From Bacteroidetes bacterium GWB2_32_14 (GTDB lineage Bacteria > Bacteroidota > Bacteroidia > Bacteroidales > UBA12077): DNA of 64,000 nucleotides. Location: NCBI GenBank assembly GCA_001768235.1, contig MENK01000001.1:82267-146266 (forward strand). The letters are read 5' to 3'. The translations under genes were made by a program, and so were the position numbers. Within the stretch, counting starts at the first letter, position 1, and every line of letters starts with the position of its first letter. Below the pieces are notes generated by a model that saw nothing but the letters and a program-made list of their open reading frames with translations, made no database searches and was not told the origin of the DNA. Positions 12,914 to 28,910 of the stretch are shown piece by piece.

Positions 12914-13083
12914 AATTGTATTTATTTTAGTTAAACATTGTTTTAAGCTATGACGCTACCTTTTTAAAACAGGTTACATTTCTTATATAAATTTTGTAAA
13001 TTGGGTACGTATTTATTGGATTCAGCTTGCCTGCCTTTGGCAGGGATACAGGATTCAGGATATTTTAACTTTTATCTTATTTC

Positions 13084-13110
13084 TGTAACCTCTTATAAAG
13101 TAATTGCGTC
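13084..13110 (+). promoter_or_regulatory. Candidate ECF-type promoter (TGTAACC-N16-CGTC) upstream of the sigma gene
   Basis: The AAC-containing -35-like element and the CGTC -10-like element have ECF-typical spacing. The element ends ~10 nt before ATG 13121. Confidence 0.35.
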
Positions 13111-13120
13111 ATACAAACAA

Positions 13121-13702: not shown

Positions 13703-14115
13703 AAAATAAAAAAATTGACATCGAGAAAATAACCCGCGAACTCATTCAGAAAGGCGAAGTTCAGCAACCGGGGGCAGATTTTACTAAGAATCTGATGGGT
13801 AGGATTTTAAAGAACCCGAATGTTACTGTTCAATTTATTAAACAGGAGAAAGATAAAAATTTTATCTGGGTATTATTTTCTCTTGCACTTGTTTTTATCG
13901 GATATATCGCCTTCTTTGTTTATAAAAACGGTTTGAATTCAATTGCCCAGGCAGAAAAAATCCATGCAATTTCTTATCTCAAATCTGTTTTCGATTTTTT
14001 TACAAAATTATGGTCTGAATTTAGCTTTTCCCCATACATACTCATTGCTTTTCTTGGAATTATTATTTTAATTTTATTCGATAAGTTTATTGTAAAATAC
14101 TTGTATTCAATATAG
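13699..14115 (+). CDS. Putative membrane anti-sigma factor, translationally coupled to the sigma gene
   Basis: ATGA overlap with the sigma gene stop. 138 aa with two TM helices. The call rests on position only. Confidence 0.45.
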   Translation: MKNKKIDIEKITRELIQKGEVQQPGADFTKNLMGRILKNPNVTVQFIKQEKDKNFIWVLFSLALVFIGYIAFFVYKNGLNSIAQAEKIHAISYLKSVFDFFTKLWSEFSFSPYILIAFLGIIILILFDKFIVKYLYSI

Positions 14116-14236
14116 AACAAGCTGGTAAAACAAAATTCTAAATAGGCCGTAATAAGTTATTGCCTATTTTTTTGCTTTTTAAGTTTTAGAATGTTGATTT
14201 TTACATAAATTTATCTTTTTTAATCAATAGTAAAAA

Positions 14237-14809
14237 TTGGAATCATTAAATAACGAGTTAATAATTGAAGGTATTCGTTCACAGAATCCTTATATACTCA
14301 ATCAAATATATACAAATTATTTCCCCGAAATCCGAAAATTTATTATTGATAATAATGGGACAATTCAGGATGCAAAAGATATTTTCCAGGAAGCAATAAT
14401 TATTATCTACAGGAAATTAAAGGTTGAGAACATTGTTATTACAAAATCGTTTAACTTATATCTGATAGGTGTTTGCAGGTATTTATGGTATCGCCAGGTT
14501 GCTTTTGTTAAAAACGAATCGGAACAACTGAATCATTTTGCGGAATATGAACGGTTGCCTGAATTTGAAATTGACGAAGTTGAAAAGAATGATAAGTACA
14601 AACTGTACCAGTTTCATTTTAAACAGTTGGGTATTGACTGCCAGAAAATTTTAGAAATGTTTTTAAATAATGTGCCAATAAAGGAGATAGCCAGGAAAAT
14701 GGGCAATACTTCTGAAAATTATATAAAAAGTCGAAAATACAAGTGTAAAGAACAATTGGTGAATAATATTAAAAACGATCCACGGTTTGCAAAGTATGAA
14801 AAGAAATAA
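14237..14809 (+). CDS. Second, divergent sigma-70/ECF-like sigma factor
   Basis: Region-2-like 'DAKDIFQEAIIIIYRKL', 'YLIGVCRYLWYRQ' and a region-4-like HTH 'PIKEIARKMGNTSENYIKSRKYKCKEQL'. TTG start. Confidence 0.7.
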   Translation: MESLNNELIIEGIRSQNPYILNQIYTNYFPEIRKFIIDNNGTIQDAKDIFQEAIIIIYRKLKVENIVITKSFNLYLIGVCRYLWYRQVAFVKNESEQLNHFAEYERLPEFEIDEVEKNDKYKLYQFHFKQLGIDCQKILEMFLNNVPIKEIARKMGNTSENYIKSRKYKCKEQLVNNIKNDPRFAKYEKK

Positions 14810-15533
14810 TTTCGATTTGACAGAAAGATATTTAATGGGCGATTTATCTGCGGAGGAAAGTACTGCTTTCGAGAAACTGATGGAAACAGATACTGAATTA
14901 AAAGCTGAATTAAATCTCGGGAAAGAGATTAATGAAGCAATTCTGGAATCGGATATTATGAATTTGCGCCATACCATGAGTGAAATCATGAATAAAAAAC
15001 AGAAGCCTGTATTCATTAAAAATCCATTTTTATGGCCGGCTACAGCTGCTGTTTTTATTCTGGCCATGATTATTAATACCTTATTTATAAGTTCACCCGC
15101 GGATAAGAATGATATTTTTAAAAAATATTACAAAGCATACCCGTCAGTATATAGCTCGAGAAGTTCTCAAAAACAATTGCGGGATCAACAATGCCTGAGA
15201 ATTGCTTTTGAACAATATGAAAAACCCGATTTTGAAAGTGCCGGTTTGTTGTTTAAAGAAATGTGGATCAAGGATTCAACAAATAATATGGCTAAATTTT
15301 ATTTATCTATAGCATTAATCGAGCAGAACAAAATGAATGAAGCCGAAAAGTATTTAAATGAACTAACTTTAAATAAACAACACTTATTTTATGAGCAATC
15401 GGTATGGTACCTGGCTTTGGTTTATTTAAATAATAATAAACCCGACGAAGCAGAAAGACTGTTAAATAAAATAATCTCGGAAAATTTATCGAATAAAACC
15501 CGGGCTAAGCAAATTCTGAAATCATTGAACTGA
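14796..15533 (+). CDS. Anti-sigma-like single-pass membrane protein with a C-terminal TPR domain (paralog A)
   Basis: Overlaps the sigma gene stop. N-terminal 'ERYLMGDLSAEESTAFEKLM' anti-sigma-type helix, TM 'FLWPATAAVFILAMIINTLFI', then TPR-like repeats ('WYLALVYLNNNKPDEA'). Confidence 0.65.
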   Translation: MKRNNFDLTERYLMGDLSAEESTAFEKLMETDTELKAELNLGKEINEAILESDIMNLRHTMSEIMNKKQKPVFIKNPFLWPATAAVFILAMIINTLFISSPADKNDIFKKYYKAYPSVYSSRSSQKQLRDQQCLRIAFEQYEKPDFESAGLLFKEMWIKDSTNNMAKFYLSIALIEQNKMNEAEKYLNELTLNKQHLFYEQSVWYLALVYLNNNKPDEAERLLNKIISENLSNKTRAKQILKSLN

Positions 15534-15537
15534 TTAT

Positions 15538-18357
15538 TTATTCTACAGGTTCAGGATAGTCATCCTTTTTTATTCTTGCCGAACGGTTTAACTTTTTTAC
15601 AATCAGAGTTACCAAAATTGCACCAAAAAGTACCCCGAACACGATGTAAATATACATGGCTGTATAGAGTGCATCGTTGTTCCCAATAACAACGTATCCC
15701 GACCAGAAATAGGGGTGAGCGTGTAATTGATCGGCATTCTGAAGAAACTCAATTTTTGCTTGTTGCAACGATTTTGATTTTGAAAATCCTTTTTTCAAAT
15801 CCTTGTAAAAAACAGTCATCAGTTTTACTCCCGAATTATCTTCGACCGACCATAAAGTCATTATTAACGATGGGCAACCTGCATATATGAATCCACGTGC
15901 TAAGCTCATAACTCCCTCGCCCTTTTGAAGGATTCCGGAACCGCTGTTGCACGAACTCAATACAGCCATCCTGCTTTTTAATTGCAAATTATATACTTCG
16001 TAGGTGTTTAAAAATCCGTCTTCGGTAGTATCGCTTGTTTGCGAAAAAGCCATTTTCGAATACATTGGGCTTTCATCGTTAAGTATGGTGTGCATTGCAA
16101 GGTGAAGAACATCAAATTCAGAGGCCTGTTGTTTAAATGTTTTTTCACTTGCATTTTCGTCTAAGAACAAGTTGCCCCCGATTAGTTTTGAAACGGTTTT
16201 TGCCTCTTCTTTTATTCCTTTTAACGGGTACAGTTTCTCCCTGTACTGTTGTCGTGTTAATATGACTCCCGGTTTCTGATTTTCCTGGTTATCGTATTTG
16301 GGTGCAAATGCAATAAGTTTTTTGGGAGCAATCTTCAGGTTATGTTCATTATCGAAAAGAATGCTTGCCGAATAGGTATAACTAATCGGGTTTTCAAACA
16401 AAAGATAATGCAATTTATTATAACTGATAGTGTTATAATTGCCCTCGTGGCAAAGTAAGGTTTCAAACGGGAGATAAGCCAGCTTTCCATCAGGGATAAT
16501 TATCAGGTGTTTTCCATTAATATAACCTGATACGGGAAGTATTAACTGTTTGTACAAATAGGATGATGATTTAATAAACCGGTTAAAATCTTCAAGATTA
16601 TGCTCCGAAAAGTTATTATCGGTTAAGCTGTTTATTTGCATTTCGAGATTTTCATCAAATCCGGGTTCTTTCTTTACACAAGTAAGCGAATAATCTGTTT
16701 TAGTTATTAAAAATATATAGACATTATCAGTACTTAAACAATATTCTATCACAGCATCTTTTTTCTTGATTCTTTCCTGTATATCTTTTATTTCAAACGA
16801 ATTATTCGAGAACTTTAACCTGAAATAATCAGGGTATTCCTTTTCAATCCTGGCAATAAGTTCGGCATGTTTTTCTTTTAATGTGAATATTTCTTTATTC
16901 CATGCAACAATAAACGTTTCATCAGGTTCTGCTTTTTTCCCCTCTTCATAAATCAGCTCTTCGAAAGTCCAGATACTTTTTTTCAATGAATTTTCGGTGT
17001 TCCGTATTTCCAGGGGTACATTTCCGGTTATCAATGCAGCATTGTTTTGTATTGCTTCGGAAAGTACGGCCGACTTTCCCGATTCAGAAAAACGAAATGC
17101 TTTTTCAAGATATTCTTTATTTCTTGTTGCTTCATATATCTTATAACTTGTTTCGAGTGTATGAATATATGTTTCGTGTTCGTTCTCGGCTAAGAAAAGC
17201 TTGCTCTGCTCACTCAAAAATCCGGAGCGGATTTCCCTGATAACATCTAATGCAAGTTCGCTGGCAGCTAGGCTGGCAGCCAGTGAATTGATGTTTGTTT
17301 TATCCTGTTCCCAGGTAAACTCTAAAGCAATGGATTTGTTTTTTAAGCTTCTTAATAACTGTGTTTTCGAAGAAACGGTACCGAGTTCAGGATTTGAACT
17401 ATAACCGGAGTCATTAAACTCCCTGGAGAGTGAGATTAATGATTTTTGAAAATAACTCAACGACTTTTGATATTCCCCGGTTTTTAAATAATACTCCCCG
17501 ATTTTAGAATATGCTCTTGCTGTTTCGGGATTCTTAATCCCTAAAATTTGTTTGTAAATCGATAATGCTTTTTCAAGGTTTTTTAACGATTCAGAGAGTT
17601 CGTTTTTGGAGTTTTGTAAAAACAGCCCATAGTTTAATTGATGTTGCGCATACCAGATGTTGTTTGTACCAAAATTTTTATGGATATTTTCGAGTGCTTT
17701 TAAATAATAAAATTCAGCTTTATCAGTGTTTCCTTCTTTTTCATACGAAAGGGCAAGGTTCTCGTATGTAGAATAAATAGTTTTATCTTCCTGTTTTAAT
17801 TTCAGACTATTTAAAAAACAAAGAATTGCCTTTTTGTTCTGATTAGTGTTTTTATATAAAATACCAAGATTATTATAAATTGATGCAATCAGCAACTTGT
17901 TTTTCATAGAGTCTGTATTTAGAATATTCAGTGATTCAGTATGATACAATTCTGCTTTTTCATAATCCTGTTGTCTTTCAAAAATTGTTGCCTTGTTTGC
18001 ATATACATATACAAGGCCTGGTGAATTGTGGCTTGATTTGTAAACTTGTTCGGCCTTGTTGTAACTCTGGATTGCTTCATCAAACCTGCCGTTCAATTTT
18101 TTTAGTATTCCAAAACTGATATAGGCCGATGCTAAATATTTTGTGTTGTTATTTTTTTCGAATATTTCAATAGATTTCCCGATATAGTAATAGGCACTAT
18201 CCAGGTTGCCCAGCTTACCGTATTCAATTCCTTTGGTTAAACTGAGAATCCCGTTTTCTAAAGTGTCAATACCAGACTGATTCTTGTAATTTGCTGAATT
18301 GCAGGCATTAATCAGGGTATGAGTTAGTATATAGATTATTAAAACGGATTTTTTCAT
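15538..18357 (-). CDS. Exported TPR-repeat CHAT-domain (caspase-like protease) protein with a C-terminal TM anchor
   Basis: Lipoprotein-like signal ('LINAC'), about 10 TPR-like repeats, and a CHAT catalytic-type region ('VLHLAMHT', 'MAVLSSCNSGSG', 'GFIYAGCPSLIMTLW'). Terminal hydrophobic helix followed by a basic tail. Confidence 0.85.
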   Translation of the reverse strand: MKKSVLIIYILTHTLINACNSANYKNQSGIDTLENGILSLTKGIEYGKLGNLDSAYYYIGKSIEIFEKNNNTKYLASAYISFGILKKLNGRFDEAIQSYNKAEQVYKSSHNSPGLVYVYANKATIFERQQDYEKAELYHTESLNILNTDSMKNKLLIASIYNNLGILYKNTNQNKKAILCFLNSLKLKQEDKTIYSTYENLALSYEKEGNTDKAEFYYLKALENIHKNFGTNNIWYAQHQLNYGLFLQNSKNELSESLKNLEKALSIYKQILGIKNPETARAYSKIGEYYLKTGEYQKSLSYFQKSLISLSREFNDSGYSSNPELGTVSSKTQLLRSLKNKSIALEFTWEQDKTNINSLAASLAASELALDVIREIRSGFLSEQSKLFLAENEHETYIHTLETSYKIYEATRNKEYLEKAFRFSESGKSAVLSEAIQNNAALITGNVPLEIRNTENSLKKSIWTFEELIYEEGKKAEPDETFIVAWNKEIFTLKEKHAELIARIEKEYPDYFRLKFSNNSFEIKDIQERIKKKDAVIEYCLSTDNVYIFLITKTDYSLTCVKKEPGFDENLEMQINSLTDNNFSEHNLEDFNRFIKSSSYLYKQLILPVSGYINGKHLIIIPDGKLAYLPFETLLCHEGNYNTISYNKLHYLLFENPISYTYSASILFDNEHNLKIAPKKLIAFAPKYDNQENQKPGVILTRQQYREKLYPLKGIKEEAKTVSKLIGGNLFLDENASEKTFKQQASEFDVLHLAMHTILNDESPMYSKMAFSQTSDTTEDGFLNTYEVYNLQLKSRMAVLSSCNSGSGILQKGEGVMSLARGFIYAGCPSLIMTLWSVEDNSGVKLMTVFYKDLKKGFSKSKSLQQAKIEFLQNADQLHAHPYFWSGYVVIGNNDALYTAMYIYIVFGVLFGAILVTLIVKKLNRSARIKKDDYPEPVE

Positions 18358-18577
18358 TTAATTCGTCACAAATTTTTTACAATATACTCTAAAATTGATT
18401 AAAAGTTAGTTTTTTTTGCATTTGTAAAACTCAGTAAATCAAAAGTATAAAAATTATTTTAAAAAAAGTTTAAAAATAATTTCAAAAACCGGGTTACCTT
18501 TTTTAAAAAAACTGCACATATAAGTGGAGAGAGAAACATAATTTTTATAAATAATAAAATCTAAAAAAACCAAAACC

Positions 18578-18736
18578 ATGAAAAGTTTAATTCACTTATT
18601 CGGGCAGGATGAACCCAAAAAATCATTCAAACAATTTGCACAACTCGGTACTAACGATATGCTGCTTGTAAAAGGCGGCGATGGTGATCCAATTGATGAT
18701 GATCTTTGGCCCCCGGTTCCACCGATTCAGAAATAA
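18578..18736 (+). CDS. Double-glycine-leader peptide 1, Cys-free acidic/Pro-rich core (52 aa); absent from the ORF track
   Basis: MKSLIHLFGQDEPKKSFKQFAQLGTNDMLLVKGG|DGDPIDDDLWPPVPPIQK. Hydrophobic residues sit at -4, -7, -12 and -15 relative to GG, as in C39-processed leaders. Confidence 0.7.
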   Translation: MKSLIHLFGQDEPKKSFKQFAQLGTNDMLLVKGGDGDPIDDDLWPPVPPIQK

Positions 18737-18767
18737 AGTTATTGATTTTATTAAAAGAACCAAAGCC

Positions 18768-18932
18768 ATGAAAAGTTTAATTCACTTATTCGGGCAGGAT
18801 GAACCCCAAAAATCATTTAAACAATTTGCACAACTTAGTACTAACGATATGTTGCTTGTAAAAGGCGGCGATGGAGAGCCACAAGACGATCTTTGGCCTC
18901 CAATTCCTCCCTTACCACCAACAACAAAATAA
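18768..18932 (+). CDS. Double-glycine-leader peptide 2, tandem paralog (54 aa)
   Basis: MKSLIHLFGQDEPQKSFKQFAQLSTNDMLLVKGG|DGEPQDDLWPPIPPLPPTTK. The leader DNA is almost identical to peptide 1. The ORF-track start at 18681 is read-through of the spacer. Confidence 0.7.
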   Translation: MKSLIHLFGQDEPQKSFKQFAQLSTNDMLLVKGGDGEPQDDLWPPIPPLPPTTK

Positions 18933-18994
18933 TATTTAAAACCTGAAAACCCAAAAGTTATTTTAAATATAAACCGTTCTAAAATTTAAAGTAT

Positions 18995-19747
18995 ATGAAT
19001 AGTTACAACCCTATTGTAGATAAATATATTTACGGGGAACTCGATACCGACGAAATGGTAGCTTTTGAGCAGTTGCTGGCAAACGATTCCCGTGTAAAAA
19101 AGGAGTATCATTTATACAACGATATAAACCATGCCATACTCGAGAAGGATGTTATGGTACTCCGCGGTACTCTCGATGGAATATATAATGAAATTGCCGA
19201 GCCAAAAGAAAAATATATTTCATCGGTTTTCTCTAAACGCAAGATGTATTACGCTGCCGCTTCGCTTGCCATGTTAATGGCTACAGGTGGTATTGTTAAC
19301 CAGTTAGCAAAAAACGACATGGGTAACGAAGCAATTTACAGCAAATATTTTACTCCTTACGAAGTAGCTGTTACTTATCGTTCAGGGAATGAAGAGGCTG
19401 ACAAACTGCTTTTATACGCGCTCCAGAAATACGAAGATGAGGAATATGATAAAGCTGTTGTTCTTTTCGAACAGGTACTCGAAAAACGAAATAATGATAT
19501 GGCTGCTAATTTATATTCAGGTATTTCTCTTATGGAAACTGAAAAATACCAAAAAGCAACACATTCGTTTCAGGCAATTATTGCACAAAATGATAACTTA
19601 TTTACTGAACAGGCAAAATGGTACCTGGCAATGTGTTACATTAAAACAAACAGTGTTTCTAAAGCAGAGAATATTTTAAATGATTTAATTGTTAAAAACA
19701 GCTATTATAAAGATATAGCCAAAAAAGTACTTAAAGAACTGGATTAA
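18995..19747 (+). CDS. Anti-sigma-like single-pass membrane TPR protein (paralog B of 14796..15533), with no adjacent sigma gene
   Basis: Same layout and alignable motifs as paralog A ('DKYIYGELDTDEMVAFEQLL'; TM 'YYAAASLAMLMATGGIV'; 'WYLAMCYIKTNSVSKAE'). Confidence 0.65.
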   Translation: MNSYNPIVDKYIYGELDTDEMVAFEQLLANDSRVKKEYHLYNDINHAILEKDVMVLRGTLDGIYNEIAEPKEKYISSVFSKRKMYYAAASLAMLMATGGIVNQLAKNDMGNEAIYSKYFTPYEVAVTYRSGNEEADKLLLYALQKYEDEEYDKAVVLFEQVLEKRNNDMAANLYSGISLMETEKYQKATHSFQAIIAQNDNLFTEQAKWYLAMCYIKTNSVSKAENILNDLIVKNSYYKDIAKKVLKELD

Positions 19748-19765
19748 CAATAAAATTTAAAAACA

Positions 19766-20488
19766 ATGAAACCACAATCTGGCACCATTAGTCGGGATGA
19801 CATTAAAGAAAGTAATGTTTCCGATAGCACCAGGAGTAGTTTTCTTTCGCATATATCGCATGGTATAAGAACGCCTTTAAACTCCATCATGGGTTTTTCC
19901 AATTTATTATTAGACAGGCAGCTTGTTGATGGTAAGCAAATTGAATATGCAAGGCGCATAGTTTCCAGCAGTAATGTATTGTTAAATTTTGTAGAGAACC
20001 TGATCGATTTGTCGCAATTCGATTCAAATAAATACAAGGTTACCCAACAGCAAGTTGATTTAAATTCATTGCTATGGAAAATAGCCGAAGATTTTATTAT
20101 TCAGAAAATTGATAAGGATTATTCTGAAATTGAACTTTCGGTGAATATCCATTCAGGAATCGAAGATTTTTTAATAACTACCGATTATGTATTGCTGAAA
20201 AAATCGTTAAACAGGCTTGTTGAGTTAGTTGCTGCTATTTATAAAACCGGGAAAATCGAGTTGGGATATTGCATTGAAAACAACCATGTACTTAAAATAT
20301 ATGTTCGTGAAAATAGCGACGAATATTTTAAACAGCAGGGCAACCTGGAGTTTAGGGATGATAACGGGGAAGATATGTTTAATGATTTCAATTTCGAAGT
20401 GCTTGTTCGTTCGATAGATCTTATTGGCGGGCGGGTTTGTACTGACTCAATTATGAATGAATATTATATCGAATTGCCAATAAATTGA
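19766..20488 (+). CDS. Soluble histidine-kinase-like protein: intact HisKA H-box, degenerate ATPase domain
   Basis: 'FLSHISHGIRTPLNSIMGFSNLL' is a good H-box. I could find no N-box (NxxxNAxK), DxGxG or GxGxGL in the C-terminal half. No TM helix. Confidence 0.65.
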   Translation: MKPQSGTISRDDIKESNVSDSTRSSFLSHISHGIRTPLNSIMGFSNLLLDRQLVDGKQIEYARRIVSSSNVLLNFVENLIDLSQFDSNKYKVTQQQVDLNSLLWKIAEDFIIQKIDKDYSEIELSVNIHSGIEDFLITTDYVLLKKSLNRLVELVAAIYKTGKIELGYCIENNHVLKIYVRENSDEYFKQQGNLEFRDDNGEDMFNDFNFEVLVRSIDLIGGRVCTDSIMNEYYIELPIN

Positions 20489-20547
20489 AAACAAAGATTT
20501 AAAACAATTATATAAAATAAATTAGAAAATAATAATACTAAAATACC

Positions 20548-20901
20548 ATGACAACATTTAATATATACTTACCAACAAAAAACGGGAAAATAGGAGTAGA
20601 GCTTAAACATATTCTTTACTTCGAATCCCTGGGCGACACCAATTTTATGGTGTTAAACAATGATGAAAAAATCGAGTTGTTAATGGCCGTTGATGAAATT
20701 GAGCAACTGCTGTGTTACCGTGGATTTTTCAGGTTTACACAAAACTACCTTGTAAACCTTAAAGCTGTTCAGCTTATATTCCCTGGCGATGCGTCGAAAG
20801 TGGTTCTCGAAAATGGTAAAGAAATTTTTGCACCGCAAAGCCGCCGTGAAGAACTTTTTAGAGAACTCGAGAAAGTGTACCAGGTTCACGCGACTATATA
20901 A
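20548..20901 (+). CDS. Stand-alone LytTR DNA-binding domain protein (no receiver domain)
   Basis: 117 aa. LytTR-like 'ILYFESLGDTNFMV...FFRFTQNYLVNLKAV'. The usual H-[RK]-S triad is replaced by T-Q-N. Confidence 0.7.
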   Translation: MTTFNIYLPTKNGKIGVELKHILYFESLGDTNFMVLNNDEKIELLMAVDEIEQLLCYRGFFRFTQNYLVNLKAVQLIFPGDASKVVLENGKEIFAPQSRREELFRELEKVYQVHATI

Positions 20902-20930
20902 TACAAGTTCTAAATAGTTTGTGTTTTTAA

Positions 20931-20969
20931 GTTCGGCTTGGTTTCCTTAACGGGAATACCTAGCCGAAC
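20931..20969 (+). terminator. Hairpin between the two LytTR genes
   Basis: GTTCGGCT...AGCCGAAC 8-bp stem with a long, partly paired loop. No clear T-tract. Confidence 0.35.
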
Positions 20970-21006
20970 AATTTACATTTAGTCTTGATTCTTAAAAATA
21001 AAATGT

Positions 21007-21366
21007 ATGATTGATTTAAATGGAAAAATATACATCCAATCCGAAGATGAAAAAATAATCCAAATTGAAGAAATAAAAAATATTGTTTATTTAGAAGCCG
21101 ACAATAGAAAAACGAAAGTTTATTGCTTCAACGGGAATCAGTATTTAATTAATAAATGCCTGAGTTACATAGAAGAAAGGATTACAAATAAAAATTTCTT
21201 TAAGATCCATAAATCATTTATCATTAATGTTGATTATTTAAAAAGTGTTAACTACAAAGGTGAAAAAAATGTAGTTCTTGAAAATGATATTAAAATTCAA
21301 ATAGCTTGTCGAAAATATCCTGAATTCAAGAGATTTTTGAAAGAGAAATTTTCGTTTTTTCAGTAA
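21007..21366 (+). CDS. Stand-alone LytTR DNA-binding domain protein (no receiver domain)
   Basis: 119 aa. Canonical 'IVYLEADNRKTKVY...FFKIHKSFIINVDYLKSV'. Confidence 0.8.
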   Translation: MIDLNGKIYIQSEDEKIIQIEEIKNIVYLEADNRKTKVYCFNGNQYLINKCLSYIEERITNKNFFKIHKSFIINVDYLKSVNYKGEKNVVLENDIKIQIACRKYPEFKRFLKEKFSFFQ

Positions 21367-21667
21367 ATGGTACTGTAATAGATTCAGACTAAATATATTC
21401 CCTTATTCGTTTTAACGATTGTTATAAAAAAGTTAACAAGTTTTAGTCAAAAATTTAATTGCGAAAATGCAAACTTTAGTTACGATAAAGTAATAAAATG
21501 CAACGATCATGTATTTGAACGGTTAGAACTAAATAATGAGGATTTTGATATAAGAATATTATGTCTAATTTAGGTTGTTTGAGTTCATTAAAAAAGCTCG
21601 GGTAGTTTATCGGTAAAGCAGGTATGAAAGAAAACTATGAAAATTAATTTAAAATAAAAGGCACGTT

Positions 21668-23287
21668 TTGAAAGAATCATTGATTTATATACTGAAAAGA
21701 ATTCTGAAAGAGAACAGGATTAAAGTTGACGAAAAAGAGCTGGAGTTTCAACTATTAAGCCATCCGTCGTACCCCAGCTTACATTCAGTTACGGGTGTTT
21801 TAGATCATTTTGCAATTAGTAACCTCGCGTTGGAAGTTCCTAAAAATATTGAAACTTTAAACCAATTACCCAGGTTTTTTCTTGCTTATATTAAAGATAT
21901 AAATAACGATGATTTAGTTTTGGTTACGAATAAAGATTCTAAAATATGTTTAATATATAATGAAAAAAGAACGGAAACTTTATCGACAGATAAATTTTTA
22001 AATGCATGGACAGGAGTAATTGTTGGAGTTGAAAAAGATAACGAAGTTGTTCCAAAAACGAACCCATTAGATTTAACCTTATTTACTTCATTTTTAACGA
22101 TAGTTTTATTAATTATCTTGTTTTTCTCTTTTAAACCGGATTTATTTCAGTCCCTGCATTTCTTATTATCATTTGCCGGATTAGCAATTAGTATAGTTAT
22201 TGTAAAACACGAGCTGGGTTTTCATTCTAAAATCGCAGATAAATTTTGTTCTGGAAATATTGATAAAATAAATTGTGATGATGTATTGAAATCGAAAGCA
22301 GCAAATTTTTTCGGAGTTTTTAAATTAAGTGATGTTGGAATTATTTATTTTTTATCCCTAACAGTATCCTGGCTATTATTATCAATGAATAAAGCAGGAT
22401 ATGATTCTTTAATTGTTATTTCAGTTTTAGCTATACCTTTTACTTTTTATTCAATAATTTATCAATATTTTGTTGTAAAAAAATGGTGTTTACTATGTTT
22501 AAGTGTAGTTTTAATATTGTGGTTGCAGGCAACTTCTCTTTTTATTGTTGATATAGATATTACCAGTTTATCTTTTACCTATAATAGTTTACTATTAGTT
22601 GCTTTTAGCTTCTTGCTCACAACCGTTTTTTGGCAATTTGTATTGCCTAAAATGAAAAAAGAAAAGGAATTAAGTATATTAAAAATTGAACATTACAAGT
22701 TTAAACGAAACTACAGCATATTTAATGCGCTTATATCAAGGTATGTTCAAATGAATACAGCAATCAATGGTACTAATGAGATTGTATTTGGGGATATGAA
22801 TAACCTTTTTAAAATTACAATTATTACGAACCCATTGTGCAGTTTTTGTAAAGGAGCACACGAACTGGTCGAAAACCTGTTAAAAAGCGGGAATAAGAAT
22901 ATTCAAATAACCATAAGATTTAATGTAAACCTGAATCGTGATGCTACTGATAATAAAATAGCCCTGAGATTATTAGAACTATACAATGTATCTGGTATAG
23001 AACAATGTTTAAACGCGATGCATGATATTTATGGTAAACTGTTACCCAAGAATTGGCTGGAAAAATGGGGCGAAGCCGGTAACCCCCAATATATTGAAAT
23101 ATTAAGGGCAGAAAAAGAGTGGTGTAAGCAAAACAATATCAACTTCACTCCTGAAATACTAATAAACGGGAGACCACTTCCAAAAGAATATGAAAGAAAT
23201 GATTTATTGTACTTTGTAGAAGATGTAGTTGAAAATGAGCAACAAAAAATTGAAAGCTCAATTTCAGAATTAGAATATACATCATAA
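21668..23287 (+). CDS. Three-domain membrane protein: catalytic-Cys-less C39-like domain, VKOR domain, thioredoxin/DsbA-like domain
   Basis: The N-terminal ~125 aa resemble a C39 fold, but 'SHPSYPSL' sits where the exporter has 'MDCGPSCL'. VKOR loop Cys pair 'CSGNIDKINC' and membrane CxxC 'WCLLC'. C-terminal 'NPLCSFCKGAH' CxxC. TTG start. Confidence 0.7.
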   Translation: MKESLIYILKRILKENRIKVDEKELEFQLLSHPSYPSLHSVTGVLDHFAISNLALEVPKNIETLNQLPRFFLAYIKDINNDDLVLVTNKDSKICLIYNEKRTETLSTDKFLNAWTGVIVGVEKDNEVVPKTNPLDLTLFTSFLTIVLLIILFFSFKPDLFQSLHFLLSFAGLAISIVIVKHELGFHSKIADKFCSGNIDKINCDDVLKSKAANFFGVFKLSDVGIIYFLSLTVSWLLLSMNKAGYDSLIVISVLAIPFTFYSIIYQYFVVKKWCLLCLSVVLILWLQATSLFIVDIDITSLSFTYNSLLLVAFSFLLTTVFWQFVLPKMKKEKELSILKIEHYKFKRNYSIFNALISRYVQMNTAINGTNEIVFGDMNNLFKITIITNPLCSFCKGAHELVENLLKSGNKNIQITIRFNVNLNRDATDNKIALRLLELYNVSGIEQCLNAMHDIYGKLLPKNWLEKWGEAGNPQYIEILRAEKEWCKQNNINFTPEILINGRPLPKEYERNDLLYFVEDVVENEQQKIESSISELEYTS

Positions 23288-23303
23288 AAGACCTTTTTCC
23301 CGG

Positions 23304-23401
23304 GGGGAAGGTTTATAAAGAAATTCTATTGCGAAGAATAAACCGAAACTTGACGGTTTAAAAAAGTTCAAGATTTTCTTTAACTAAAAATTCTTAATAA
23401 A
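23304..23401 (+). promoter_or_regulatory. Cassette upstream element, copy 1 (conserved promoter/operator-like repeat)
   Basis: Contains GCGAAGAATAAACCGAAACTTGACGG (23331-23356) and TTCAAG (23367-23372). TTGACGG lies 52 nt before the ATG. Confidence 0.55.
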
Positions 23402-23572
23402 ATGAAAGATTTAAAAAATTTAAAAGGTGCTAAAGTTCTTGGCAAAACAGAACAAAAAGCTATTAAGGGCGGAGTAATAGTTATTTGTGAAGGATGTCCG
23501 CCAATATCCGATTGTTGTGTAAATAACATTTGTGGCAAAATAGGTATAGGTGGAAAATGTTATGCCATTTAG
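23402..23572 (+). CDS. GG-leader Cys-rich bacteriocin-like precursor A (56 aa, 6 Cys in the core); absent from the ORF track
   Basis: MKDLKNLKGAKVLGKTEQKAIKGG|VIVICEGCPPISDCCVNNICGKIGIGGKCYAI. Confidence 0.75.
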   Translation: MKDLKNLKGAKVLGKTEQKAIKGGVIVICEGCPPISDCCVNNICGKIGIGGKCYAI

Positions 23573-23588
23573 TTTTATTTTATTCAGG

Positions 23589-23631
23589 TTAACTAGGAAT
23601 TATCTGGATTTTTCAGATAACTTCTAGTTAA
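23589..23631 (+). terminator. Hairpin after precursor A
   Basis: TTAACTAGGAATTATCTG / CAGATAACTTCTAGTTAA, 16 of 18 positions complementary. Confidence 0.5.
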
Positions 23632-23809
23632 TTATTTAGGTGGAATCCACAGTTTGCCTGACTTTAAAAAAGCAGTTGAAAATCAGGGTTTTATGCACGT
23701 GACATGCAGTTGTAACAGCTAAATGTTATTTTGAAGTGCTATGTAATATTTGCGATTTTTTTATTCTGCATACAAGTCAGAAATTGAATGCATACCACGA
23801 AATAATTTA

Positions 23810-23908
23810 CTCAAGGAAGATTTAAAAAGAAATTCATTCGCGAAGAATAAACCGAAACTTGACGGTTTTAAAATGCTCAAGATATTTTAACCTAAAATTT
23901 CTAATAAA
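23810..23908 (+). promoter_or_regulatory. Cassette upstream element, copy 2
   Basis: Differs from copy 3 at about five positions in 99 nt by my count. TTGACGG at 23859-23865 (50 nt before the ATG); CTCAAG at 23876-23881. Confidence 0.6.
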
Positions 23909-24055
23909 ATGAAAGATTTAAAGAAAATGAAAGGTGTTAAGATTCTTAGCAAAAAGGAGCAAAAAGCTATTAAAGGCGGATATGCTTGCAGAGAACCTGA
24001 AATGTGGTGCCCTCCCGGATCGATTTGTGTTGATGGGCTTTGTCGTCCAGTATAA
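23909..24055 (+). CDS. GG-leader Cys-rich bacteriocin-like precursor B (48 aa, 4 Cys)
   Basis: MKDLKKMKGVKILSKKEQKAIKGG|YACREPEMWCPPGSICVDGLCRPV (C-x6-C-x5-C-x4-C). Confidence 0.75.
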   Translation: MKDLKKMKGVKILSKKEQKAIKGGYACREPEMWCPPGSICVDGLCRPV

Positions 24056-24081
24056 TAGCAGATACGATTATTAACTAATTA

Positions 24082-24115
24082 AGAAGTTGTCTGAAAAAAT
24101 ATTCTGGCAACTTCT
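24082..24115 (+). terminator. Hairpin after precursor B
   Basis: AGAAGTTG ... CAACTTCT stem. Confidence 0.4.
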
Positions 24116-24198
24116 CTTAAAAATCATTACCTCCCCCTTGATATTTCCCCGGGGGAATAAAAAAGTTTAACATCAGTAATTGAATAAAAACTATTTTT

Positions 24199-24297
24199 CT
24201 AAAGGAAGATTTAAAAAGAAATTCTCTCGCGAAGAATAAACCGAAACTTGACGGTTTTAAAATGCTCAAGATATTTTAACCTAAAATTCTTAATAAA
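24199..24297 (+). promoter_or_regulatory. Cassette upstream element, copy 3
   Basis: GCGAAGAATAAACCGAAACTTGACGG at 24229-24254 and CTCAAG at 24265-24270. TTGACGG lies 50 nt before the ATG. Confidence 0.6.
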
Positions 24298-24453
24298 ATG
24301 AAAGATTTAAAAAAATTAAAAGGTGCTAAAATTCTTAGCAAAAAGGAGCAAATCTCAATTAAAGGTGGAAAAATTTATTGTGGTGATGGAAAACCTTGTC
24401 CTGTTGGTACAATATGTAATGGGACATGGTGTGAACCATATATTGAGGCATAG
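24298..24453 (+). CDS. GG-leader Cys-rich bacteriocin-like precursor C (51 aa, 4 Cys)
   Basis: MKDLKKLKGAKILSKKEQISIKGG|KIYCGDGKPCPVGTICNGTWCEPYIEA (C-x5-C-x5-C-x4-C). Confidence 0.75.
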   Translation: MKDLKKLKGAKILSKKEQISIKGGKIYCGDGKPCPVGTICNGTWCEPYIEA

Positions 24454-24471
24454 TATCAAATTTTAAATATC

Positions 24472-24503
24472 GAGAGAAAATCTTTGGTTTTCTCTCATTT
24501 TTA
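24472..24503 (+). terminator. Hairpin plus T-tract after precursor C
   Basis: GAGAGAAAA / TTTTCTCTC stem followed by ATTTTT. The sequence is related to the hairpin after precursor D. Confidence 0.6.
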
Positions 24504-24604
24504 ATTAAATAAGTTTAGATCGCTTTAAGTTAGAAATAATTAAGAAAGTTGTAAAATACTTACAATAAGTTGTGTTTAATTTTTAACTCAATGATAGCAT
24601 ATAT

Positions 24605-25540
24605 ATGGATATAATTAATAGCATCATAGATTTTGTTAAGGATAACTGGACTACAATATTTAGTGGTATTGGTACAACTATTTTAATTGGAATTCTCGGA
24701 TATATTGGTAAGCGTATGAAAAAAGGAAAAAAAATATCCCAAGAAGAAAAAAAAGTTATAAATCAAAGTGTGAATACTGGAGATAACTCAAAAGTAATTC
24801 AAAGTGCTGAAAACATCATAATTGACAATTCAGATGTTAAAATAAATAATGATTCAAAATCAACAGCCACAGAGCAAACAATTATTGTGCAAGCTGGTAG
24901 AGATGCTATATTGAATGTTAAACAAAGTCCGCCTGACATAAAATTAGTACGAGTAACAGTTGAAGATGATGAAACACAAAGAGGGCTGAAGCAAAAGCTG
25001 AATGTAATAATGAAAAATAATGGAGATAAAAGTGTATTTCTTTTAAGTGGTCATCTAGAGGTTATTGGTTGTGAAGACATTGTAAATCCAAATCATTTTG
25101 GAATGCATTATAAACTTAGTTTTGCTGATTGGAATTATGATGTTGATATTAATAGTGATAACCCTAGCTTTAAGGGACAACATATAATTGAACCAGATGA
25201 AGTAATTAACTTTAATGTCATAGTCGGTAGAAATGAAGGAGGCCTTAATTTATCAGTCTATAAATGTTTATTAAAGTTTAAATTTGATGAACACAAGGAT
25301 TTAGAATGTGGTCCATTTTTCTTGCTTATTTCTGGACCAACTGTTTGGGATGGAGGTTTTCAAGCCTGTGGACCAACTCCTGAACAATGGGGCAGAGCGC
25401 AAGTAGATAACATCAAACGTTTAGACAGTATAGGATATGATTATCGTCATCAAATTCATCCAGATTCAAGAAAATACCTTGAAGAAATAGACCCACATAT
25501 CTTTGAAAAACAAAAAACTAAACACAACACGCGGTCATAA
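24605..25540 (+). CDS. Hypothetical N-terminally membrane-anchored protein (311 aa) interrupting the cassette array
   Basis: Long clean ORF. TM helix 'IFSGIGTTILIGILGYIG', then a low-complexity Asn/Ser/Asp linker and a ~200-aa globular domain. I do not recognise any family motif. Confidence 0.55.
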   Translation: MDIINSIIDFVKDNWTTIFSGIGTTILIGILGYIGKRMKKGKKISQEEKKVINQSVNTGDNSKVIQSAENIIIDNSDVKINNDSKSTATEQTIIVQAGRDAILNVKQSPPDIKLVRVTVEDDETQRGLKQKLNVIMKNNGDKSVFLLSGHLEVIGCEDIVNPNHFGMHYKLSFADWNYDVDINSDNPSFKGQHIIEPDEVINFNVIVGRNEGGLNLSVYKCLLKFKFDEHKDLECGPFFLLISGPTVWDGGFQACGPTPEQWGRAQVDNIKRLDSIGYDYRHQIHPDSRKYLEEIDPHIFEKQKTKHNTRS

Positions 25541-25660
25541 AACATGCCGGTTTCAGTCGGTTTTCGAGCGTTTCGTCCCGCCTCGTAGGTTTGTAACGGG
25601 GGGTACAGACGCAGCCCCGCAATCCGGCACGTTTCATACCGCCAACGTTAGAGTATAGCA
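25541..25660. other. GC-rich, non-coding, structure-prone island of unknown nature
   Basis: Composition jumps sharply relative to the AT-rich surroundings. Complementary segments: ATGCCGG (25544-25550) / CCGGCA (25624-29), and CGGGG...CCCCG around 25597-25619. No ORF. Confidence 0.3.
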
Positions 25661-25697
25661 TGACGGGAAATTAAACTTTACAAAAATGACTGAAGCT

Positions 25698-25750
25698 TTG
25701 ACGGTCAACTAAATGCTCAAGGCAAATTATTAATTAAATAGTAACTTATT
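25698..25750 (+). promoter_or_regulatory. Cassette upstream element, truncated copy 4 (core only)
   Basis: TTGACGG at 25698-25704 (53 nt before the ATG) and CTCAAG at 25716-25721. The distal GCGAAGAATAAACCGAAAC part is absent. Confidence 0.5.
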
Positions 25751-25924
25751 ATGAAAGAATTAAAAAATTTAAAAGGTGCTAAAGTTCTTAGCAAAAAAGA
25801 GCAAATCTCAATTAAAGGCGGATTAGAAATTTGTGATATTTTTGGGCATGATTGCCATGAAGGTTATATTTGCAAATTAGTGAATTCAACCACGGGATGG
25901 TGCATTCCTGTAATCGAAGATTAA
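25751..25924 (+). CDS. GG-leader Cys-rich bacteriocin-like precursor D (57 aa, 4 Cys)
   Basis: MKELKNLKGAKVLSKKEQISIKGG|LEICDIFGHDCHEGYICKLVNSTTGWCIPVIED. Confidence 0.75.
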   Translation: MKELKNLKGAKVLSKKEQISIKGGLEICDIFGHDCHEGYICKLVNSTTGWCIPVIED

Positions 25925-25934
25925 TGTCTTGAAT

Positions 25935-25970
25935 AATGAGAGGGAACTTTTTGGTTTTCTCTCATTATTT
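25935..25970 (+). terminator. Hairpin after precursor D
   Basis: AATGAGAG / CTCTCATT stem. Shares 'tttggttttctctcatt' with the hairpin after precursor C. Confidence 0.55.
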
Positions 25971-26175
25971 AAAATTTAGAATTTAGAATAACTCATTTCT
26001 GCCCAGGATTTTGCCATGGGGCTAATCATTAAATAAAATAGTTTTAAATACAACAGTATCAATACAGAAGCAAATCGATTATAAAAAATCTTTGTAAATA
26101 AATGCAATTTATTTTCTGAATTATTAAAATTAATCCTAAGTCTGTTCAAGAGTTTTTAATATCTTTAAACCAAAA

Positions 26176-28392
26176 ATGCCTTTCCCCTTTTACCAACAGT
26201 TAGATGCCATGGATTGCGGCCCTTCGTGCCTGCGCATGATTGCGAAACATTATGGCAAGTCGTTTTCCTTACAAACCTTGCGCGATAAAAGCTATATTAC
26301 CCGCGAGGGTGTTTCTATGCTGGGTATTAGCGATGCAGCAGAAGCAATTGGATTTCGCAGCATGGGTGTTCGAATTACTTTCGAGCAGTTACTAAACGAA
26401 GCACCAATGCCTTGTATAGCACATTGGAAGCAAAATCACTTTGTGGTGGTTTATAAAATCAAACAAATTCTCCCGTCCCCCTTTAGAAAAGGAGGAGTAT
26501 TTGTACATGTGGCCGATCCGGCACGGGGATTGATAAAATTTACCAAGGAAGAGTTTATGTCGGGTTGGGCTAACACGAAAGAAGCGGGCGAAGATAAAGG
26601 TTTGTGCCTATTGCTGGAAACAACTCCCGACTTTTACAAGTCCGATAATGAAAAATTAAACAAATCGGGTTTCAAATTTTTGTTTTCGTATTTACGACCG
26701 TATAAAAAACTGATTATTCAGCTGGTATTAGGTTTATTGCTGGGTAGTTTATTGCAACTTATTTTTCCATTTTTAACCCAGAGCATTGTCGATAAAGGTA
26801 TCAATAACCAGGATTTGAGCTTTGTAACACTCATTATTATTGCACAACTGGTACTTATTTTTTCGCGAACTATAGTTGAATTTATTCGGAGCTGGATTTT
26901 ATTGCACCTGGGTACACGAATCAATATTTCGTTAATATCCGATTTTCTGATTAAATTAATGAAGTTACCGGTTTCCTTTTTCGATACTAAAATGATTGGT
27001 GACCTTATTCAACGAATTGGCGACCATAAACGTATCGAAAACTTTTTAACATCATCTACATTAAATATCCTGTTCTCATTTGTTAACCTGATCATATTTG
27101 GCATTGTTCTTCTTACATACAGTGTAAACATATTTCTTATTTTCCTTATAGGAAGTACATTATACACGCTTTGGATTTACCTGTTCATGAAAAAACGACG
27201 CGATTTGGATAATCGGAAGTTTGCCCAACTTTCGAGTAATCAAAGCAATGTAATTCAGTTGATTACCGGAATGCAGGAAATAAAACTGAACAACTGTGAA
27301 AAGCAAAAACGATGGGAGTGGGAGAGTATCCAGGCCAAGTTGTTCAAAGTAAATATGGATAGCTTATCATTGAGTCAGTACCAGCAGGCTGGCGGGGTTT
27401 TTATTAACGAAATAAAAAACATTGCAATCACGTTTATTGCAGCCAAATCAGTTATCGACGGACAAATGACTCTGGGTATGATGCTGGCAGTGCAATACAT
27501 CATTGGCCAGTTAAACAGCCCGATTAATCAAATGATTGGATTCTTGCAGGCTACCCAGGATGCGAAAATAAGCCTGGAACGCTTAGGTGAGATTCATCAA
27601 CGCGACAATGAAGAGTCGGACGAAACGCCTAAAATAAGTATTCTGCCTGAACACCGTGATTTAAATATTGATTTAATATCATTCCAGTACGAGGGGCCTC
27701 ATTCGCCTTTTGTGCTCGAAAATGTTGAATTAAATATCCCCGAGAAAAAAATTACAGCTGTAGTAGGTACCAGCGGTAGTGGTAAAACCACACTAATCAA
27801 GCTTTTACTTGGATTTTACGAGCCACAGAAAGGCAAAATAAAACTGGGTGATATTTACCTGAACAATATCAGTAATCGTATGTGGCGCGATAAGTGTGGT
27901 GTTGTTATGCAGGATGGATTTATTTTCTCCGATTCAATAGCAAATAATATTTCTGTTTCAGACGAGTTTCCCGATCGCGAAAAATTACTAAATGCCGTAA
28001 AGGTGGCCAATATACAGGATTTTATTGAATCTCTGCCTTTGGGCTATAATACAAAAATCGGACAGAATGGTGTTGGATTGAGCCAGGGGCAGAAACAACG
28101 AATACTCATTGCCCGTGCGGTGTATAAAAACCCTGAATTTATTTTCCTTGATGAGGCTACCAATGCACTCGACGCAAATAATGAACGTGTTATCATGGAA
28201 AACCTCGATCAGTTTTTTAAAGGGAAAACAGTTGTAGTTGTTGCACACCGATTGAGTACTGTAAAAAATGCCGACCAGATTGTAGTTTTGGAGCAAGGGA
28301 AAATAGTAGAAAGAGGTACCCATGCAGAGTTAACCAGGAAGAAAGGTGCTTATTACGAGTTGGTGAGGAATCAGTTGGAGTTAGGGAATTAA
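26176..28392 (+). CDS. Peptidase-C39-domain ABC transporter (double-glycine leader cleavage and export)
   Basis: N-terminal C39 with a candidate catalytic set (Q in 'YQQLD', C in 'MDCGPSC', H in 'QNHFVVV', D in 'VADPA'). Six-TM ABC membrane domain. Walker A 'GTSGSGKTT', signature 'LSQGQKQR', Walker B 'IFLDEATNALD'. Confidence 0.9.
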   Translation: MPFPFYQQLDAMDCGPSCLRMIAKHYGKSFSLQTLRDKSYITREGVSMLGISDAAEAIGFRSMGVRITFEQLLNEAPMPCIAHWKQNHFVVVYKIKQILPSPFRKGGVFVHVADPARGLIKFTKEEFMSGWANTKEAGEDKGLCLLLETTPDFYKSDNEKLNKSGFKFLFSYLRPYKKLIIQLVLGLLLGSLLQLIFPFLTQSIVDKGINNQDLSFVTLIIIAQLVLIFSRTIVEFIRSWILLHLGTRINISLISDFLIKLMKLPVSFFDTKMIGDLIQRIGDHKRIENFLTSSTLNILFSFVNLIIFGIVLLTYSVNIFLIFLIGSTLYTLWIYLFMKKRRDLDNRKFAQLSSNQSNVIQLITGMQEIKLNNCEKQKRWEWESIQAKLFKVNMDSLSLSQYQQAGGVFINEIKNIAITFIAAKSVIDGQMTLGMMLAVQYIIGQLNSPINQMIGFLQATQDAKISLERLGEIHQRDNEESDETPKISILPEHRDLNIDLISFQYEGPHSPFVLENVELNIPEKKITAVVGTSGSGKTTLIKLLLGFYEPQKGKIKLGDIYLNNISNRMWRDKCGVVMQDGFIFSDSIANNISVSDEFPDREKLLNAVKVANIQDFIESLPLGYNTKIGQNGVGLSQGQKQRILIARAVYKNPEFIFLDEATNALDANNERVIMENLDQFFKGKTVVVVAHRLSTVKNADQIVVLEQGKIVERGTHAELTRKKGAYYELVRNQLELGN

Positions 28393-28490
28393 AAAAGTTG
28401 CAGCAGTATGTAGCAGCAGGAAGCGGAAGTATTTAGTTAAGGTTAGTTGGTAGTATAAAAATTATAACTAAAATTTTAATATAATAGACA

Positions 28491-28862: not shown

Positions 28863-28910
28863 ATTATACTGCATACTGCAACTGTCAACTGCAGCTTAAT
28901 AATAAATAGT

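Follow-up and report, generated by a model that had tools for sequence, protein, structure and literature searches.

The 64-kb stretch of the Bacteroidetes bacterium GWB2_32_14 genome analysed here (contig MENK01000001.1; about 33% G+C; the whole stretch is called the window) carries three adjacent genes at the heart of a putative signalling cassette that is conserved in Bacteroidales and kept in fixed synteny beyond what chance would give. They encode psHK, a soluble histidine pseudokinase that is predicted to be unable to work as a kinase, and LytA and LytB, two LytTR proteins without receiver (REC) domains. Neither histidine pseudokinases nor LytTR systems without receivers are new in themselves; what appears to be new is their coupling in one cassette with a tetratricopeptide repeat (TPR) protein, TPR250, that resembles an anti-sigma factor and with a double-glycine-leader peptide, a combination not found in the literature on LytTR proteins and Bacteroidetes, LytTR regulatory systems (LRS), bacteroidetocins, pseudokinases or CHAT and extracytoplasmic function (ECF) proteins. 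[quoted passage not shown]

A sequence-only reading of the window had described the three genes as phosphorelay parts without a relay. All three open reading frames (ORFs) are present as it described them, and the description holds: the ATP-binding motifs are lost family-wide and no receiver is linked to the genes within 10 kb. Together with the TPR gene, they lie as follows.

19766–20488, forward strand: psHK, 240 amino acids; soluble histidine pseudokinase whose DHp hairpin (H-box SHGIRTPLN) is followed by a degenerate domain resembling the catalytic and ATP-binding (CA) domain
20548–20901, forward strand: LytA, 117 amino acids; receiver-less, acidic, non-canonical LytTR protein and the constant partner of psHK
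21007–21366, forward strand: LytB, 119 amino acids; receiver-less, basic, canonical LytTR protein
18995–19747, forward strand: TPR250, with an N-terminal helical domain, a probable transmembrane helix (YYAAASLAMLMATGGIV) and a C-terminal TPR domain

Related loci were gathered as contigs encoding homologues, including metagenome contigs, and by a scan of GTDB representative genomes that gave 29 species; they were annotated with hidden Markov models (HMMs) built for this analysis. The order pepS (the peptide gene)–TPR250–psHK–LytA, ending in zero to two copies of LytB, is found in every related locus where the contig extends far enough, with LytA present in all loci but one (L023, where none was seen) and TPR250 directly upstream of psHK in every cassette whose contig reaches it. 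Median gaps are 21 nt between TPR250 and psHK (n = 32), 11 nt between psHK and LytA (31 loci) and 95 nt between LytA and LytB, and the TPR250, psHK and LytA genes are kept 4–40 nt apart in 30 species. The carriers, all of them uncultured, span at least 30 Bacteroidales species, and the close homologues of the window genes come without exception from Bacteroidales or Bacteroidota metagenome-assembled genomes. The wider space between the two LytTR genes holds one further element.

20931–20969, forward strand: GC-rich hairpin between LytA and LytB, RNA fold z-score −4.98

Most of 22 related LytA–LytB spacers have a stable stem-loop at the same place, formed from unrelated sequence. The hairpin suggests a conserved terminator or attenuator that would separate TPR250–psHK–LytA from LytB. 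Rfam gave no match in 18000–26500, and scans with consensus promoters and terminators were uninformative.

The pseudokinase assignment rests on agreement between domain searches, profile alignment and a structural model. In Pfam, HisKA is the sole match to psHK (E 3.9e-15), with no HATPase-type family at E ≤ 1; across a family alignment of 41 members, HisKA is matched in 41/41 and HATPase families in 0/41, and the homologues as a whole, about 90 sequence clusters of 240–260 amino acids, carry HisKA-only annotation throughout. An alignment-based AlphaFold2 (AF2) model (predicted local distance difference test score, pLDDT, 80.9) nevertheless places an α/β domain after the DHp hairpin, and Foldseek aligns about 220–245 columns of the model to complete DHp–CA structures, with RetS first, followed by GacS, ZraS, WalK, HK853 and DivL. 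Aligned with canonical kinases by hhalign (probability 99.8%, 224 columns), the family matches His32 to the acceptor histidine, and every nucleotide-binding element is altered: the N-box Asn has become a hydrophobic residue, G1 (DxGxG) reads 'IRP...', the F box is also replaced, and G2 (GxGLGL) reads 'FDYFNY', where the family has a new conserved motif, (S)FDYFN. The ATP lid has given way to a short acidic linker that is disordered in the model (183–201) and evolves neutrally. We therefore read the C-terminal half, from model and alignment, as a degenerate CA domain and not a missing one; a truncated kinase without a CA domain is ruled out by the CA-like fold in the AF2 model, Foldseek and hhalign. 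The sequence-only reading, which had failed to find N, G1 and G2 boxes there, was thus right about the motifs, whereas the domain itself persists in degenerate form. It had called for profile alignment and structure prediction, which respectively bear out the motif loss and disclose the CA-like fold, and its view that the protein has neither a transmembrane segment nor a sensor domain is borne out: no segment of psHK resembles a transmembrane helix (maximum 19-residue Kyte–Doolittle hydropathy 1.0), and a sensor domain is lacking, because the DHp helix starts after just some 19 residues.

The H-box tells a more intricate story. Its sequence, S-H-G-I-R-T-P-L-N, belongs to 22 consecutive positions that are nearly invariant in the 41 sequences, which share about 40% identity overall, with H32, G33, R35, T36 and P37 strictly so. 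H-G-I-R-T-P is invariant in 90/90 clusters of the core family, and the Thr at H+4 is always kept. The H-box had been called textbook; it is indeed strongly conserved, but the residue after the His is Gly and not Glu or Asp, in the window psHK as in all 90 clusters. That acidic residue is needed for kinase activity only and the Thr/Asn for phosphatase activity only (Willett and Kirby, PMC3510030). Since psHK has lost its N, G1, F and G2 boxes, none of the 41 members matches a HATPase family and Gly stands in for the acidic residue, the protein is predicted not to be kinase-competent.

The histidine itself is not universal. When 1.84 billion representatives were scanned exhaustively with HMMER, a small core psHK family emerged and then a few divergent short pseudokinases. 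One in-cassette orthologue, P0187, has Tyr at the His position and occurs in three assemblies (L035, L088 and L089); another, P0186 (L087), has Asp there together with a degraded RTPLN motif. Both keep the setting CHAT, peptide, TPR, psHK, LytTR. LytTR genes also follow the more divergent pseudokinases P0188 and P0194, and they follow pseudokinases with H-D or H-R. Because His-less orthologues sit in the same cassette, phosphotransfer through this residue is not a universal requirement, and from the sequences His phosphorylation is predicted to be dispensable in the psHK cassette.

The closest intact relatives of psHK are 311-amino-acid soluble kinases with all boxes present (L038, 9911–10846; P0262), and in an alignment with them all nucleotide-binding boxes of psHK are again replaced. 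These kinases adjoin the same sigma/TPR/CHAT module that accompanies the cassette (described below), with no peptide or LytTR genes; this suggests that psHK descended from an orphan soluble kinase of that kind. Their C-terminal tail contains 'TWPE', recalling the 'LWPP' of the pepS peptide, which may be coincidence.

Missing catalytic motifs and receiver domains could also mean that the genes are decaying, functionless remnants of a former two-component system. We consider this scarcely credible: dN/dS is 0.09–0.18 over the four cassette proteins tested (TPR250, psHK, LytA and LytB), which indicates purifying selection, 22 H-box positions have stayed nearly invariant, and the cassette ORFs are intact in all loci but one, with synteny kept in 29 species. 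Selection and synteny together rule out the decaying remnant. For psHK itself, dN/dS is 0.13 overall and 0.17 in the CA-like half; the linker that replaces the lid is the one part that drifts. As the CA-like fold is kept, dN/dS is low and a new SFDYFN motif stands at G2, we read psHK as a selected pseudokinase rather than a truncated remnant or debris.

Both proteins encoded downstream are, as the sequence-only reading had it, bare LytTR domains. LytTR is the only Pfam match in each (LytA, E 1.2e-10, residues 17–105; LytB, E 1.8e-18, residues 22–111), and all LytTR homologues found are 110–143 amino acids long, that is, without a fused receiver. The two differ consistently. The H-K-S motif is retained in LytB (FFKIHKSFIIN) and replaced in the LytA orthologous group by T-Q-N (in the window, as had been noted), N-N-R, N-H-K and similar. 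Median net charge and pI are −3 and 5.7 for LytA and +4 and 9.0 for LytB. The equivalent of AgrA R218 is Ser in LytA and Lys/Arg in LytB, and that of R233 is Asn/Ser in LytA and Arg in LytB, in an AgrA numbering that we take to be correct as it places H169, N201 and R233 properly. LytB is therefore the probable DNA-binding output, and the sequence contrast between the two proteins is the one expected of an adaptor and a DNA-binding protein. The suggestion that the pair comprises one active and one modulatory subunit thus finds support in charge and contact residues, but its arrangement shifts: the non-canonical LytA is the constant partner (dN/dS 0.09), and LytB varies between zero and two copies. 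A search for LytA homologues gave 12 close relatives only.

Receivers were sought at three scales. Pfam scans of every ORF of at least 100 amino acids in the island, 13001–30206, found none, in line with the earlier reading. Across the window, phmmer with CheY, Spo0F and hybrid kinases as queries against all six-frame ORFs found a single REC, in an unrelated hybrid kinase (43706–46186) 23 kb away. No REC lies within 10 kb of psHK in the related loci, including the 29 GTDB species representatives; this absence is credible because the same REC model detected receivers in unrelated kinase loci of the same scan. The sequence-only reading had named intact ATP-binding boxes and a genetically linked receiver in related genomes as grounds for giving it up; the 41 family members and the 10-kb surroundings in 29 species yielded neither.

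Two other kinases are encoded in the window: an intact orphan histidine kinase of 390 amino acids (8388–9560, reverse strand), beside DUF6150 and MscS genes, and the hybrid kinase (43706–46186, reverse strand), with the architecture SBP_bac_3–PAS–HisKA–HATPase–REC and no Hpt domain. Each of the two is, in principle, a possible partner for psHK.

It is accordingly conceivable, if rather unlikely in our estimate, that psHK is directed at a receiver encoded elsewhere, whether as a phosphatase, as a Spo0B/ChpT-like phosphotransferase or as a DivL-like sensor of a phosphorylated regulator, with the LytTR proteins being co-transcribed outputs or separately controlled. The invariant H-G-I-R-T-P of the core family would suit such a role, and RetS, which heads the structural matches, acts as a phosphatase on the GacS receiver by means of its HExxT motif although its ATPase domain is degenerate (PMC5992135). 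The His-less orthologues are compatible with receiver docking too, because DivK~P is still bound by DivL, whose His site holds a Tyr (PMC4211667). Also in its favour, the soluble kinases that are the closest intact relatives stand next to that sigma/TPR/CHAT module as orphans, no regulator being adjacent, and the window itself supplies an orphan kinase and an Hpt-less hybrid kinase. Set against this are the lack of any receiver within 10 kb in 29 species, where the constant and often near-overlapping neighbour is a receiver-less LytTR gene, and the His-to-Asp orthologue, which stays in the cassette despite its degraded RTPLN; phosphotransfer through His, at least, cannot be universal in the family.

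The adaptor model needs an input, for which TPR250 is the candidate. Its family comprises about 85 clusters (dN/dS 0.10), and its Pfam matches are to TPR_19 and related families. It is a full-length paralogue (32% identity, E 1e-39) of an anti-sigma-like protein encoded at 14787–15533. A conserved Ala/Gly-rich segment, YYAAAS.ALL.ATGG.V, occupies the place where the paralogue has a variable, strongly hydrophobic transmembrane helix; in TPR250 it is probably a transmembrane helix with a specific packing partner. The N-terminal domain gave only weak anti-sigma matches (NCBIfam, E 0.01–0.02), and a profile of its 82 residues found no meaningful match in the PDB. The role of an inhibitor like HdrM or BrsM, which the sequence-only reading had raised for TPR250, is plausible in view of its constant adjacency and its paralogy with the neighbouring anti-sigma-like protein; it shares a putative operon with the LytTR genes, but the psHK gene lies between. 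A cytoplasmic TPR receptor of the RRNPP type is not favoured, given a paralogue with a clear transmembrane segment at the same position and a peptide with a double-glycine export leader, although the modest hydropathy of TPR250 tempers this.

The candidate ligand is encoded immediately upstream by pepS, which in the window is a tandem duplicate preceded by a conserved promoter block.

18491–18534, forward strand: pepS promoter block, GGGTTACCTTTT ... GCACATATAAGTGGAGAG, upstream of pepS
18578–18736, forward strand: pepS copy 1, a 52-amino-acid double-glycine-leader peptide; predicted mature part DGDPIDDDLWPPVPPIQK
18768–18932, forward strand: pepS copy 2, tandem duplicate; predicted mature part DGEPQDDLWPPIPPLPPTTK

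The two copies form a direct repeat, 91% identical, and a homologous gene of about 55 codons precedes the TPR gene in at least 27 related loci. The leader follows the consensus MKTLKN.F....KKS.N.F...L....M..IKGG, and in the mature part an acidic run leads into LWPP and then a short tail that is Pro-rich or acidic; Cys is absent. The promoter block, GGGTYACCTTTT-N~12-GGAAT.AATAGGTG, can be aligned across 27 related loci and has a single exact match in the window. It is unlike the consensus of the Bacteroidetes housekeeping factor sigma-A and, for that reason, may be read by an ECF-like sigma factor encoded nearby, in a conserved trio upstream of the cassette that is present in every related locus with enough flank.

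14237–18357, mixed strands: sigma / anti-sigma-like / CHAT module, consisting of the next three genes
14237–14809, forward strand: divergent ECF-like sigma factor
14787–15533, forward strand: TPR anti-sigma-like protein, its gene overlapping the sigma gene
15538–18357, reverse strand: TPR–CHAT lipoprotein with a C-terminal transmembrane helix

Upstream of this trio, 13001–14115 encodes a second, canonical ECF sigma factor (233 amino acids) and then a 138-amino-acid protein that has two transmembrane segments and matches no family; related loci likewise conserve the pair upstream of the island.

On the other side of the cassette lie the genes that are probably regulated.

21668–30206, forward strand: cargo, comprising the following
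21668–23287, forward strand: C39-like/VKOR/thioredoxin protein
23402–23572, 23909–24055, 24298–24453 and 25751–25924, forward strand: four Cys-rich double-glycine-leader peptides of bacteriocin type
26176–28392, forward strand: C39-ABC exporter
28911–30206, forward strand: HlyD-type protein
23350–23372, forward strand: bacteriocin box, TTGACGGT-N10-TCAAG, with further copies at 23859–23881, 24248–24270 and 25698–25721

The gene set matches bacteroidetocin-type loci (PMC6671954), and the same type is found in L001; the bacteroidetocin paper mentions no regulators. The peptide gene at 23909–24055 encodes only 48 amino acids (MKDLKKMKGVKILSKKEQKAIKGG-YACREPEMWCPPGSICVDGLCRPV), below the 50-amino-acid cut-off of the ORF list, and has its own copy of the box. 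Four matches to the box were found against none expected. A palindrome, AAACCG-N8-CGGTTT, overlaps it (regions 23306–23377, 23815–23886, 24204–24275 and 25680–25725), and the box also stands ahead of the same peptide family in L003, L016 and L018. Elsewhere the cargo differs, with lanthipeptide genes in L004 and YcaO and radical-SAM genes in L003 and L005. Cargo of RiPP or bacteriocin type that is nonetheless variable would fit a portable regulatory module.

Two further genes were noted among the cargo. A '23S rRNA intervening-sequence protein' (a four-helix bundle, bAvd-like) is encoded at 28491–28862, between the C39-ABC exporter and the HlyD-type gene, as it is in L001. At 24605–25540, amid the bacteriocin genes, a 311-amino-acid ORF that matches no family and has a single hydrophobic segment, at its N terminus, could encode an immunity or accessory protein.

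The sigma module offers another route to these genes. The ECF-like sigma next to the cassette could have TPR250 as its second anti-sigma factor, in which case the island would be controlled through a sigma/anti-sigma/CHAT proteolytic module, a split version of DdvS/DdvA, with psHK and the LytTR proteins being accessory or having other targets. The full-length paralogy of TPR250 with a protein whose gene overlaps the sigma gene points in that direction, as do the presence of the module alongside every cassette, the dissimilarity of both the pepS promoter and the bacteriocin box to LytTR direct-repeat sites, and the union of an anti-sigma domain with TPR–CHAT in DdvA (PMC11506125). We nonetheless judge it improbable. 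It leaves unexplained the 4–40-nt spacing of TPR250, psHK and LytA in 30 species and the strong purifying selection on psHK and LytA, and the N-terminal domain of TPR250, with its weak anti-sigma matches and no PDB match, lends it little.

We return to the adaptor model, for which we infer binding partners, ligand, direction of control and target promoters. psHK would be a dimeric DHp and CA-like pseudokinase that neither binds ATP nor autophosphorylates, kept as a protein–protein adaptor like the repurposed kinases RetS and DivL. TPR250, probably single-pass, would be the sensor, most likely of the exported double-glycine peptide pepS, and psHK would relay the state of TPR250 to LytA, an acidic protein with the LytTR fold. 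In cassettes that have LytB, this step would set whether LytB is free to activate target promoters. The logic combines that of the streptococcal LRS (PMC6193735) with that of RetS and DivL.

Several observations weigh against this model. The His and the Arg, Thr and Pro at H+3, H+4 and H+5 are invariant in the core family, with the Thr at H+4 being the phosphatase residue (PMC3510030), so that retained phosphoryl chemistry or receiver docking fits equally; RetS and DivL, the best-studied pseudokinases, both act on receiver domains. The membrane topology of TPR250 is uncertain, its segment having a hydropathy of 1.2–2.1 across orthologues and an AF2 pLDDT of 59. LytA is not merely a modulator of LytB, as 7/31 loci hold LytA only. 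In a crude scan of cassette-upstream regions for 9-mers repeated at 20–22 bp start to start, no positionally conserved pair of LytTR-type direct repeats emerged from 27 aligned regions, most of which had none, and the pepS block and the bacteriocin box may be sites for the two neighbouring sigma factors. L006, finally, has the cassette with no RiPP-like cargo downstream.

A more ambitious form of the adaptor model would make the cassette a Bacteroidales system of phosphorylation-free peptide signalling between cells, in which an anti-sigma-like membrane protein reads pepS, with its acidic LWPP core, through its TPR domain and holds or releases a psHK dimer, which in turn holds or releases receiver-less LytTR proteins that switch on bacteriocin or RiPP clusters. 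We regard this as possible, though on the doubtful side; if it held, direct control of a receiver-less LytTR domain by a histidine-kinase fold would be seen for the first time, and Bacteroidota would have a native form of peptide quorum sensing.

Until now, histidine pseudokinases and stand-alone LytTR proteins have been known as rare, separately studied oddities; here at least 30 species have them tightly coupled, along with a dedicated peptide and a putative TPR sensor. Should the proposal prove true, the DHp/CA fold and the LytTR domain would be rewirable into a sequestration-based relay, and Bacteroidota would gain a route by which peptide signals control the production of antimicrobial peptides, a matter poorly understood in the phylum. 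The natural His-to-Tyr and His-to-Asp orthologues provide a ready-made test of how much the conserved His matters. Whatever mechanism we infer, the cassette is a clearly delimited module, conserved widely and accessible to experiment, and it can serve in genome mining as a marker for adjacent RiPP and bacteriocin clusters of several chemistries.

Compared with canonical HisKA kinases, psHK has the DHp domain with its His and lacks the acidic residue after it, the HATPase_c boxes and an adjacent receiver partner. Its likeness is to pseudokinases of the RetS and DivL kind, in that it is predicted to keep the DHp–CA fold with the catalytic motifs lost and is maintained by selection. The kinase region of Pseudomonas aeruginosa RetS (PDB 6DK7, 6DK8 and 7N0E), a DHp with a degenerate HATPase domain, is the best match in both sequence and structure; RetS has no G-boxes and cannot autophosphorylate (PMC5992135), and it acts by protein–protein contact with another signalling protein, the kinase GacS. 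RetS is, however, a large membrane-bound hybrid sensor with a periplasmic domain, two receiver domains and a retained HExxT, whereas psHK is soluble, only 240 amino acids long, has H-G-x-x-T and no receiver, and is tied to receiver-less LytTR proteins. Caulobacter crescentus DivL likewise uses a kinase fold as a non-catalytic sensor or adaptor and has Tyr at the phospho-acceptor site, as in P0187/L035 (PMC4211667). It differs in having PAS domains, in reading the single-domain regulator DivK~P and in controlling CckA, whereas psHK has no visible receiver partner. Spo0B and ChpT are soluble dimeric DHp-like bundles whose CA-like domain no longer binds ATP; they need their His and shuttle phosphate between receivers. 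In the psHK cassette, by contrast, the His is replaced by Tyr in P0187 and Asp in P0186, and no receivers are linked.

The neighbouring sigma-like, TPR anti-sigma-like and TPR–CHAT genes resemble a split version of Myxococcus xanthus DdvS/DdvA (PMC11506125). DdvA unites anti-sigma, TPR and CHAT parts in one polypeptide with a zinc-binding N-terminal bundle, whereas the window has two proteins without the CHCC residues; kinase-like and LytTR proteins have no part in DdvSA.

For the LytTR proteins, the nearest parallel is with the LRS HdrRM and BrsRM of Streptococcus mutans, in which receiver-less LytTR regulators are held by an adjacent membrane protein, not by phosphorylation, and control bacteriocin genes (PMC6193735). 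The cassette likewise has a receiver-less LytTR regulator, LytB, with the canonical motif and basic contact residues. The LRS are two-gene operons with the regulator first, and their inhibitors, which are multi-pass or DUF2154- or NfeD-like (PMC6193735), are by that description set apart from TPR250. LRS autoregulate through a pair of direct repeats of about 9 bp, 11–13 bp apart and about 10 bp upstream of the operon −35 element (PMC6193735). The cassette, by contrast, interposes a pseudokinase between the membrane protein and the LytTR proteins, has two LytTR classes and shows no such repeats upstream. LytA and LytB also stand apart from response regulators of the LytR/AgrA type, in which an N-terminal receiver is fused to the LytTR domain. 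The Gram-positive peptide quorum-sensing systems ComCDE, BlpCHR and AgrBDCA pair polytopic HPK10 kinases that have working ATPase domains with regulators that carry receiver domains. In outline the cassette resembles them, with a double-glycine-leader peptide, a C39-ABC exporter, a kinase-family protein, LytTR outputs and bacteriocin cargo; it differs in that both phosphorylation parts are missing and the putative sensor is a TPR protein.

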